Below are positions 220 through 7,261 of a stretch of 16,876 nt of DNA, in pieces. The notes under the pieces were generated by a model. That model did not search any database. It saw only the letters and a list, made by a program, of their open reading frames with translations, and was not told the DNA's origin. The position numbers and the translations under genes were made by a program. This stretch comes from an uncultured archaeon (GTDB lineage: Archaea; Asgardarchaeota; Heimdallarchaeia; Heimdallarchaeales; Kariarchaeaceae): assembly GCA_964645535.1 (NCBI GenBank), contig CAZYCQ010000034.1:2204-19079 (forward strand), written 5' to 3'. Position 1 is the stretch's first letter. Each line of letters begins with the position of its first letter.

Positions 220-660
220 TCATAGTAGGGAAGATTTGTTAATTTTTCGTTTCAGAACTACAACAGCGGCCATTGCAAAAACCATGGCCCAGAATGGGAT
301 TGGGGTGGGTTCTGGCTCCAATTTGGTTGCAACGACATCCGTTGCGAATTCACCGACATTGCCATCATAATCAGCGACAGTCAGTAGAAGGGTAAACTCA
401 CCCAAAACATCGATCATGATGGAAATGTTGTAGTTATAGGATCGACTATCATCGGCAGGCCTTTCGAAAAAGTCCTTGCCAACAAGTTCCCCATCCATGA
501 ATATTTTATATTCACGCAGGTTATTGTCAATGACTTCCCATGAGACCAATCCGGGTTCCTGAAGCGAAACCTCGTCCTTTCCGATGATTTGGATTTCCTG
601 TCCAGATACTGGAACAAAAAATACTGAGATGAGAATGAATAGGATAAAGAACCGTTTCAT
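220..660 (-). CDS. Small surface protein: signal peptide, one Ig-like repeat, C-terminal Pro-rich/TM/basic anchor
   Basis: Start reassigned from GTG 669 to ATG 660 because of the ATGA overlap with the upstream stop (657-660) and an SD-like AGGAGGTG just upstream. Signal peptide MKRFFILFILISVFFVPVSG; repeat core 'VSWEVIDNN..Y.IFMDG...GEFTLLLTVADYDGN'; tail 'EPEPTPIPFWAMVFAMAAVVVLKRK'. Confidence 0.8.
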   Translation of the reverse strand: MKRFFILFILISVFFVPVSGQEIQIIGKDEVSLQEPGLVSWEVIDNNLREYKIFMDGELVGKDFFERPADDSRSYNYNISIMIDVLGEFTLLLTVADYDGNVGEFATDVVATKLEPEPTPIPFWAMVFAMAAVVVLKRKINKSSLL

Positions 661-5404: not shown

Positions 5405-7261
5405 CTATTCCGGGCGAAAACCATACATACCATATTCAAGGAGCCTGTAGAGGAAGACCAACAACTGTTCTCCTTTTGGGGTAATTTTCACCTCTTCCCT
5501 AATTGCACCATGGGAAGTGGTTGTTTTCACAATCTGCAATAATTCAAGGCCAACCAGCATCGTCACCCTGCGATAGATGCTCAAACCAAACTTGTTCTTG
5601 AGATTGGATCTTGGACATGATGGGGAGCCATATTCCAGAACTTCAGTCAGGATAAAGATATCAATTAATTTTAATTTAATCCCCATTTCCTTTCTGAATT
5701 CATTCCAGGCACCTGCCTCAATTTGATGGATTCTGGTATAGAGTTCTATGGTAGGGGGATCGCGAAATGCAACCTGTATGTCAGTACGTTCACTGGGAAG
5801 GACAATTGCAGCCGATGTGGGAGGAGAAGATCGGTGTTGAACATGATTCATTGAACGAATGAATCCAAGGGGCCATTTTTTCCAAAAACGAATTTCATCC
5901 ATGTATTTGATATAAAAACCTATTCCAAGAGCCAATAAAACTATGAGGGAGATACTCCATCCGATAATGGGGATGGGGTCAATTATTGAACGATAGGAGA
6001 AAATTAAGGTTTTTTGCGAAAAGCCACCTTTAAATGCTTGATAGACATCAAATGCGGAAAGCTTATTCAAGTCAAAAGGAGGGAGAGGATAGCTTTTGTT
6101 TCTAATAAGGAGACTGTTGCCATCTAGAGATTGATAGATTGCGACCATCTTTTGCCTTAAATAATGGACACCATTGATTGGGAAGCCTAACTCCTCGATA
6201 AAGATTGATTTTGCAGGAGTATGAAGAAAAGTTTTTGTGGTACCATTTCCAAATATAGTAAAAACCTTGTTTGTTGTCCGGTTATAGCTGACTGGGAGGA
6301 ATTGGAATACATTCTGTAAGGTAATCAACTTGCCTACACGCGATCCATCAAGGAGACTAAAGGTGGAAATGGTGAGCGGGACATTTTCAAATACCGTTTG
6401 GGGGTAATATGTCAACAGAGGATCATTTTCATCTGGAATGGAGGTTAGAATCGGTGTTGAATCTTGTACTGTAGAACCCTTTGTTGGTATGGCAAACCAT
6501 AGCAATGTTCCATTGTCAAGAAATACACGAAGGGGGCTGTTGCTTTCACCAGCAGTGGCAATGTATGTTATGCCCTTGTGCTGAACAATTTCCAAGGCGG
6601 AATTTTTTTCATCTACCGGCATTGAAACATTCCAAGTTTCTTGATAACCGTCTTCCATCCAGTCCATGCGCAAGAGGGTAAATTTGCCATCCAAACTGGT
6701 CTGGTTCCACATTGAAGCACCAAAGAGAAGAAAAAGTTCATCGAAACCGTCATTGTCAACATCAACCGCCTTTACTGCATCTGGGCCACGATATCTGACA
6801 TAATTAAAAGGGTAAGACCATTCCTGCACAAGGTTTCCATATTGATCTAGAAGCACCATCTCTTCCCCTGTACTTCCCAAATTTAGTTGGTTCCAGATAA
6901 GGACATGTTTTCCTTTATTAAGAGAAAGAGCAGTACTTTTCCTAGCATCAAATCCTTTGGGAAATCCGTACTCCCATTTAATGGAGAATTCAGGAAGGGT
7001 AATGAATTCCACTTTAAGGTTTTTCAATATTGACAAGAGATACGTCTGATTGGATTCCTCCTGGATTTGTGCTTCCACAAAGGGTACAGTTAAATTCGAG
7101 AGATTTGTGCCGATGCGGTATACGCCCTCGTCTTCAATTGAGTAAAATTCAATTCTCCGTCCTTCCTCAAGGGTCACAAAATAAATGTGCATAATGGGGG
7201 CAGCATATGAATTATGTGATGAAAGAAGAAGAAAAAACAACACGAAGTACAGGGAACGCAT
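5405..7261 (-). CDS. Single-pass membrane-tethered transcription regulator: signal peptide, extracellular FG-GAP-type propeller, TM helix, cytoplasmic MarR-like winged-HTH
   Basis: 618-aa ORF. Signal peptide MRSLYFVLFFLLLSSHNSYA; DVDNDG loop; TM 'IIGWSISLIVLLALGIGFYI' (~5909-5968); C-terminal 'IDIFILTEVLEYG...RSNLKNKFGLSIYRRVTMLVGLELLQIV...REEVKITPKGEQLL' follows the MarR-type wHTH pattern. Confidence 0.72.
   Translation of the reverse strand: MRSLYFVLFFLLLSSHNSYAAPIMHIYFVTLEEGRRIEFYSIEDEGVYRIGTNLSNLTVPFVEAQIQEESNQTYLLSILKNLKVEFITLPEFSIKWEYGFPKGFDARKSTALSLNKGKHVLIWNQLNLGSTGEEMVLLDQYGNLVQEWSYPFNYVRYRGPDAVKAVDVDNDGFDELFLLFGASMWNQTSLDGKFTLLRMDWMEDGYQETWNVSMPVDEKNSALEIVQHKGITYIATAGESNSPLRVFLDNGTLLWFAIPTKGSTVQDSTPILTSIPDENDPLLTYYPQTVFENVPLTISTFSLLDGSRVGKLITLQNVFQFLPVSYNRTTNKVFTIFGNGTTKTFLHTPAKSIFIEELGFPINGVHYLRQKMVAIYQSLDGNSLLIRNKSYPLPPFDLNKLSAFDVYQAFKGGFSQKTLIFSYRSIIDPIPIIGWSISLIVLLALGIGFYIKYMDEIRFWKKWPLGFIRSMNHVQHRSSPPTSAAIVLPSERTDIQVAFRDPPTIELYTRIHQIEAGAWNEFRKEMGIKLKLIDIFILTEVLEYGSPSCPRSNLKNKFGLSIYRRVTMLVGLELLQIVKTTTSHGAIREEVKITPKGEQLLVFLYRLLEYGMYGFRPE

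Follow-up and report, generated by a model that had tools for sequence, protein, structure and literature searches.

This work concerns a 16,876-bp stretch of DNA (the window; positions 2,204 to 19,079 of contig CAZYCQ010000034.1, assembly GCA_964645535.1) from an uncultured archaeon of the Kariarchaeaceae, phylum Asgardarchaeota. In the window, four co-directional genes on the minus strand encode a putative membrane-bound transcription regulator (hereafter the receptor), an adhesin-like protein, an immunoglobulin (Ig)-repeat protein and a small surface protein. All features of this locus are given in window coordinates and lie on the minus strand. The receptor gene (5405–7261) is an intact open reading frame (ORF) of 618 amino acids (aa); it has a 58% identical ortholog and full-length relatives of at most 24% identity, all with the same architecture. 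A 97-bp spacer (5308–5404) separates it from the gene of the 866-aa adhesin (2707–5307), in which Pfam and hydropathy place an N-terminal anchor, an FG-GAP propeller head, an MG2 domain and an Ig-like stalk. The Pfam scores of the adhesin are 46.3 bits for FG-GAP_3 (four stretches), 22.7 bits for FG-GAP, 38.3 bits for MG2 and 30.3 bits for the Ig-like ChitinaseA_N. Its head carries five DxDxDG-type motifs and belongs to the FG-GAP beta-propellers (PF13517/PF01839). A transmembrane (TM) segment lies at residues 16–34 of the adhesin, and hydropathy revealed no C-terminal anchor. After a 10-bp gap comes the gene of the Ig-repeat surface protein (657–2696, 679 aa), which has a signal peptide, Pfam matches to MG2, Big_13, PKD and TIG, and a C-terminal TM anchor at residues 656–674 followed by a basic tail. 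The small surface protein (220–669, 149 aa), whose ORF overlaps the preceding gene by 13 bp, also has a signal peptide and a C-terminal TM anchor by hydropathy, and its ortholog occupies the same position in the locus of the species that carries the 58% receptor ortholog (L003). Upstream of the receptor lie a Uma2 gene and then unrelated genes.

The receptor very probably consists of a signal peptide, an extracellular propeller, one TM helix, a linker of about 75 aa and a cytoplasmic MarR/PadR-like winged helix-turn-helix (wHTH) domain, with a head homologous to that of the adhesin. This agrees with the preliminary description of the locus, which had proposed a membrane-tethered winged-helix protein. 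The signal peptide or N-terminal anchor (residues 1–22, 7196–7261) is a hydrophobic segment present in every family member and modelled by AlphaFold2 (AF2) as a helix at residues 2–14. Hydropathy analysis flagged this segment in five of seven family members and found a single internal TM helix in each of the seven. The ortholog and all relatives keep the hydrophobic N-terminus, which makes the ORF start at 7261 the better gene model; the database gene call (P0005, 595 aa) begins at M24 and so omits this part (7193–7261). The AF2 model of the whole receptor (mean predicted local distance difference test score, pLDDT, of 61.8) has an all-beta ectodomain at residues 39–347, mostly with pLDDT of 70–90, and ends in a unit of three helices, a beta-hairpin and a further helix. 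Searching with the full-length model, Foldseek returned seven- and eight-bladed propellers, the best being the EPTP propeller of LGI1 (E = 6e-8), with BamB and NirN also among the matches.

Based on AF2 and Foldseek, we delimited an FG-GAP-derived beta-propeller at residues ~35–350 (6212–7159), in which a single DxDxDG motif is left (167–172). Against Pfam FG-GAP_3 the receptor ectodomain scored 14.1 bits, under the cutoff of 26.9. We assign it to the FG-GAP propellers because of its propeller fold and its homology both to the adhesin and to those relatives whose repeats are clearer, and not because of the Pfam score. Compared with FG-GAP/integrin-alpha propellers, among which Pfam recognises the adhesin head, the receptor head has lost most of the calcium-type motifs. 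The membrane-proximal segment of the ectodomain (residues 351–428, 5978–6211) is poorly conserved, with a gappy family alignment and pLDDT below 50 over residues 346–411. It is followed by the TM helix (residues ~429–452, 5906–5977), with a hydropathy peak at 426–444, an AF2 helix at 429–460 and a position conserved in the family. The cytoplasmic linker (residues 453–529, 5675–5905) comprises a juxtamembrane helix, modelled at 463–477, and a disordered stretch with pLDDT below 50 up to residue 512. Six of the seven family members have a higher density of N-glycosylation sequons in the ectodomain than in the cytoplasmic part. All seven receptor-family ectodomains (P0001, P0006–P0010 and P0012; 400–450 aa each) are free of cysteines.

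The C-terminal wHTH (residues 530–612, 5426–5674) was modelled separately, since Foldseek on the full-length model gave propeller matches only. A profile built from 21 family C-termini gave 45 matches in the PDB with E < 0.01; nearly all of them were MarR or PadR proteins (best E = 7.4e-7), and the remaining ones were other small wHTH proteins. The separate domain model (pLDDT 83.7) has helices at 33–44, 52–59 and 63–72, strands at 76–82 and 88–94, and a last helix at 96–112. The top Foldseek matches of this model were BldR, MexR, a PadR-like protein and ST1710, with TM-scores of 0.5–0.63. With a three-helix core, a beta-hairpin wing and profile similarity to solved members, the receptor C-terminus belongs to the MarR/PadR-like superfamily; it shares fold and sequence profile with the classical members, which are soluble cytoplasmic dimers. 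Alternatively, this winged helix could be a protein-interaction module and the whole protein a surface receptor or anchor with cytoplasmic partners. Winged helices are known to serve protein contacts elsewhere, and Pfam has no family for the receptor C-terminus (P0001:500–618) even at E up to 10, the cutoffs of PF03551, PF12802 and PF01047 not being reached. The C-termini of other members gave PadR, MarR_2, HTH_20 and FUR matches, all sub-threshold (for L057 and L058, MarR_2 scored 21–24 bits against a cutoff of 27), and an ESM Atlas search with the C-terminal part of the receptor gave a best score of 0.76, under the useful level. However, almost all profile and structure matches are MarR/PadR regulators that bind DNA, conservation within the domain is highest in the region of the recognition helix and the wing, and the family profile also matches the PadR domain of a related protein (L061), which passes the Pfam cutoff. 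We therefore consider the protein-interaction role very improbable. Since the receptor combines a predicted wHTH and a TM helix in one chain, it falls under the definition of transmembrane transcription regulators (TTRs), that is, proteins with a DNA-binding domain and at least one TM region in the same polypeptide.

We compared the heads of the receptor and the adhesin, for which four motif pairs in a colinear alignment had been described. All eight motif strings were found at the coordinates given for them (receptor residues 159, 247, 274 and 296; adhesin residues 212, 300, 325 and 346), with a spacing from GP to DGS of 146 aa in the receptor and 143 aa in the adhesin, and profile methods reproduced the alignment in the same register. 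A hidden Markov model (HMM) of receptor-family ectodomains matched the adhesin at 52.9 bits (E = 9e-15) as one colinear domain, whereas the other FG-GAP genes of this genome scored no more than 20 bits. In hhalign, ten receptor ectodomains aligned with two adhesin heads at 98.2% (E = 2.8e-14) over 281 columns that included all four motif pairs, with an identity of about 14%. The corresponding parts are residues 63–339 of the receptor (6245–7075) and, by HMM and hhalign, residues 108–413 of the adhesin (4069–4986). Smith-Waterman alignment without composition adjustment also returned this alignment (raw score 64); in shuffling tests the chosen segments gave z = 5.3, with 2 of 500 shuffles reaching the score, and the whole domains gave z = 3.65, with 4 of 300. 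In the reverse direction, the best non-self match of the adhesin head alone in 47 genomes of the order was a receptor gene (G232), with E = 8e-9. Each head is thus the best match of the other outside its own orthologs.

A number of results speak against any special relationship of the two heads and would fit a merely generic FG-GAP likeness. BLASTP of the receptor against the adhesin was not significant (best E = 0.10), and its best high-scoring segment pair joined the sole DxDxDG stretch of the receptor to a different adhesin repeat; in tblastn searches of their own genome, neither protein recovered the other at E ≤ 1. The adhesin was missed by a sub-profile of receptor residues 176–330, which holds three of the four motif pairs, and by a profile built from the local receptor together with its 58% ortholog (E = 7). 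The best generic FG-GAP propellers in 301 genomes of the phylum reached 94–97% in hhalign (score 62–89 over 85–174 columns), and summed HMM scores of generic FG-GAP proteins reached 50–86 bits. On the other side, the adhesins gave the longest colinear alignments (hhalign score 99–109 over 192–281 columns) and led all non-receptor proteins of these genomes in single-domain HMM score, 53–65 against 33–43 bits. Together with the outcome of the reverse search, this makes a purely generic likeness improbable. On the claim that each head is closer to the other than to generic FG-GAP proteins, the two are the best and longest match in both directions, but they exceed the best generic propellers by a modest margin, and neither the profile of the local receptor pair nor the tree adds to it. 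Judged by these profiles, the homology of the heads is real but distant, and the heads of the receptor family and of the adhesins appear to be each other's nearest known relatives.

The history of the two heads was assessed with a maximum-likelihood tree, in which the adhesin pair, on a branch of 3.1 substitutions per site, is weakly placed as sister to the local-receptor clade (support 64/41). In approximately unbiased (AU) tests, a clade of adhesins and local receptors was not rejected (p = 0.165). Two placements gave borderline values that argue mildly against a generic likeness, namely the adhesins outside all of the receptors (p = 0.047) and the adhesins with generic proteins (p = 0.044); nothing was firmly rejected. 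A profile of the distant family members only matched the adhesin at 66.8 bits. The adhesin head resembles the conserved form of the family, in which several members have three DxDxDG blades, while the local receptor keeps one. Because the distant profile matches the adhesin and the profile of the local pair misses it, recent copying of the head from the neighbouring gene is excluded. Thus, of the duplicated binding module that had been proposed, the homology of the heads stands, but the adhesin head is not a recognisable copy of its neighbour, and the tree and the AU tests are compatible with a local duplication without showing it. We give an origin of the pair by local duplication even odds. 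A complex prediction for the receptor ectodomain and the adhesin head, which was run without controls, gave a score of 0.00, which counts neither for nor against an interaction.

We then considered whether the pairing of receptor and adhesin is kept in other genomes, as had been expected. The gene order Uma2, receptor, adhesin, Ig-repeat protein and small protein is preserved in the 58% relative (L003), with identities of 80, 58, 73, 68 and 62%, respectively. The propeller pairing has been seen only in this genus. There is an analogue with another fold: at locus L050, a beta-helix regulator is followed directly downstream by two surface proteins on the same strand, each with a signal peptide, a beta-helix head, a Thr/Ser/Pro-rich linker and a C-terminal TM anchor, and one of them with an Ig-like domain. 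The heads of these surface proteins match the head of the regulator at E = 1e-38 to 1e-42. Locus L060 has the same arrangement, and since its regulator is 43% identical to that of L050, the two loci are probably orthologous. At a further locus (L055), a gene with a similar head lies about 7 kb from a beta-helix TTR. The propeller pairing is thus kept in one close relative and absent at the eight other loci of the propeller type; the beta-helix analogue is kept between regulators of 43% identity. The same-head layout recurs, with a second, independent occurrence in beta-helix heads, but it does not define the family.

The same comparison bears on a plausible, although in our opinion minority, explanation in which there is no functional coupling: the regulator would have another target or signal, and the adjacency would be a leftover of tandem duplication and domain shuffling. 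The following observations weigh on that side. No gene with a similar head was found near the receptor at the eight other propeller-type loci (three of these contigs are short), and the sampled beta-helix TTR loci other than L050 and L060 also have no adjacent same-head gene. Tandem clustering is common among beta-helix genes generally, as seen in genome G136. The synteny with the close relative takes in the unrelated Uma2 gene and therefore may reflect shared ancestry only. Two genomes of the same genus (G045 and G160, of which one has 93% completeness in 10 contigs) yielded neither receptor nor adhesin, which makes it probable that the locus is accessory. Among the large parts of the locus, the receptor ectodomain evolves fastest, with 56% identity between the two species against 73% for the adhesin head, and there is no sign of matched change. 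Against this explanation, the layout with the regulator first and anchored same-head proteins on the same strand recurs with another fold and is kept at 43% receptor identity. The small number of genes with Pfam FG-GAP_3 repeats in this genome, only five, and the independent beta-helix version speak for a non-random link between the receptor and the adjacent same-head surface gene.

The spacer between the receptor and the adhesin gene was also compared between the two species. The window spacer sequence TATTTAAATTTTA aligns with TATATAAATTTTA of the orthologous spacer in L003, and the AT-rich TATA-like elements at 5369–5381 and 5326–5338 are conserved. We infer from this conservation that the spacer may function as a promoter. 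A promoter of its own for the adhesin gene would also fit the absence of coupling, and a search for inverted repeats in both spacers yielded no convincing palindrome or operator, which likewise tells against control by the receptor. Control of the adjacent operon by the receptor is possible but rather doubtful when taken alone.

Surface proteins downstream of both regulator types end in a hydrophobic helix with a basic tail (window 657–2696 and 220–669; L050:3548–8312), and at L050 the Thr/Ser/Pro-rich linkers precede this terminal helix. This suggests that the C-terminal mode of anchoring is common to the surface proteins found downstream of propeller-type and beta-helix-type regulators. Elsewhere in the window, a second minus-strand cluster (11055–16768) encodes a 438-aa membrane protein, an 868-aa protein without a Pfam match and a LonB-like AAA protein. 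In L003, a gene that matches Cas_APE2256 and LexA_DNA_bind (13172–13897) and is not present in the window comes after the gene cluster.

The distribution of the receptor was determined by an exhaustive search of 1.84 billion representatives and by a search of 301 genomes of the phylum. Among the representatives, seven proteins were found, and five of them, of 650–700 aa (P0007–P0010 and P0012), have the receptor architecture; word-indexed homolog searches recovered close orthologs only. Full-length members occur in the 301 phylum genomes only in two families (f1 and f4) of one order; in the window's own taxonomic family they are present in 6 of 10 genomes, and the other is a sister family. The 58% relative carries the label Candidatus Heimdallarchaeota, and the DNA of the window is present in hot-springs metagenomes of one study, with no RNA run among the sequencing runs listed for it. 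In another family of the same class, the module of TM helix, linker and wHTH is joined to NosD/Beta_helix ectodomains in proteins of 566–1147 aa. Sequence comparison describes the receptor family as small and fast-evolving and as a part of a wider modular set with exchangeable heads. Short relatives from this other family of the class have two or three TM segments, a linker and the wHTH in 262–301 aa (L043:1480–2382 and L044:1466–2251), and a free-standing wHTH of 145 aa is also encoded there (L027:1414–1848). At L061 (1375–2904), a PALP domain, that is, a pyridoxal phosphate (PLP)-dependent enzyme domain, is fused to the PadR domain, giving a cytoplasmic, soluble one-component relative. A 104-aa ORF upstream of receptor P0008 (L006:1618–1932) was considered as a stand-alone wHTH and rejected, as it has nothing in common with P0008 but the last ~35 residues of that receptor, which it copies almost exactly, and the ORF looks like the remnant of a partial duplication.

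Taken together, the best explanation of the locus is, in our view, a TTR with a propeller head that would have arisen by an old duplication and may control the downstream surface operon; we put the probability of this whole reading at about 45%. The two heads would most likely have originated by an old local duplication with domain shuffling. After the duplication, the head of the local receptor would have diverged fast, and of the three calcium-type DxDxDG motifs present in the corresponding blades of several relatives it would have lost two. MarR/PadR domains bind DNA as dimers. Binding of a ligand or contact with a surface at the propeller may change the oligomeric state of the receptor, and the wHTH could then act on DNA from the membrane. 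The most likely target would be the downstream three-gene surface operon, possibly together with the receptor's own promoter.

The signal might instead be transmitted by regulated proteolysis, with a stimulus at the propeller leading to cleavage and to the release of a fragment of linker and wHTH into the cytoplasm. The juxtamembrane helix and the wHTH are separated by about 35 aa of disordered linker, which would suit such a release; free-standing wHTH homologs such as the 145-aa protein exist, and the window contains the LonB-like AAA gene at a distance of about 4 kb. RsgI anti-sigma factors are also known to signal by proteolysis (PMC10328401). However, no protease is genetically linked at the orthologous loci, no cleavage site is marked in the sequence, and ToxR, ArnR and similar TTRs act while membrane-bound (PMC10269533, PMC6396743). 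We therefore regard release by proteolysis as unlikely and keep to a wHTH that would act from the membrane.

The receptor can be compared with several known systems. ToxR, CadC and TcpP have an N-terminal DNA-binding domain of the OmpR/PhoB type and a C-terminal sensor. Like the receptor, they are one-component proteins with one TM helix, a sensor outside and a winged helix inside, but in the receptor the order is reversed, and its wHTH matches MarR/PadR rather than OmpR-type domains. In ArnR, an N-terminal HTH is combined with C-terminal TM segments, and there is no large ectodomain. ArnR and ArnR1 are, like the receptor, archaeal and membrane-bound, but they belong to another phylum and have no sequence relationship to the receptor family; in Sulfolobus acidocaldarius they regulate operons of surface appendages, that is, of surface structures (PMC6396743). 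TTRs in general occur widely among bacteria and archaea, with about four per archaeal genome, and single-pass proteins are the commonest (Demey et al. 2023, PMC10269533). They act from the membrane, and the survey identified them via recognised DNA-binding domains (PMC10269533). The wHTH of the receptor is under Pfam detection, and therefore censuses based on such domains probably miss it. The receptor differs from these TTRs in its type-I topology, with a large N-terminal ectodomain, a C-terminal wHTH and a propeller head (a beta-helix head in relatives).

A matched head is also not new. In Clostridium thermocellum, RsgI6 carries an extracellular GH10 module with 57% identity to Xyn10D, whose promoter is recognised by the cognate sigma-I6 (PMC4711584). 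In that system the secreted proteins under control contain a module paralogous to the sensor head, as proposed here. RsgI6 differs in being a bacterial anti-sigma factor that works through proteolysis and a separate sigma factor, whereas the receptor has the DNA-binding domain in the same chain and its head is only ~14% identical to that of the adhesin. Thus the suggestion that the layout has no precedent did not hold, since TTRs are widespread (PMC10269533) and RsgI6/Xyn10D offers the matched head (PMC4711584).

Our results define a previously unrecognised modular family of Asgard type-I receptor-regulators, which in two lineages adjoins surface proteins with homologous heads. One could go further and suppose that the Asgard archaea searched here have modular type-I receptor-transcription factors with heads drawn from the same pool as the surface proteins that they control and sometimes encoded directly upstream of them, so that the cell would sense the same ligand or its own coat and tune the operon. 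We regard this general proposal as unlikely in its full form. If it were true, the receptor would correspond, as a single chain in archaea, to RsgI6/Xyn10D, and its topology would recall that of eukaryotic transcription factors tethered to the membrane.

To our knowledge, signal transduction in Asgard archaea is almost unexplored. The surface proteins of these archaea are believed to bring about the contacts between cells that matter in models of eukaryote origin. With interchangeable heads (propeller, beta-helix or none), the family offers a system for asking how archaea, without two-component relays, pass signals from outside on to transcription. Should the adjacent operon be the target of the receptor, the locus would offer a case in which control of the surface architecture of an Asgard archaeon by contact or ligand can be tested directly. 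If the operon is not the target, the locus still documents the shuffling of surface-protein heads onto signalling outputs.

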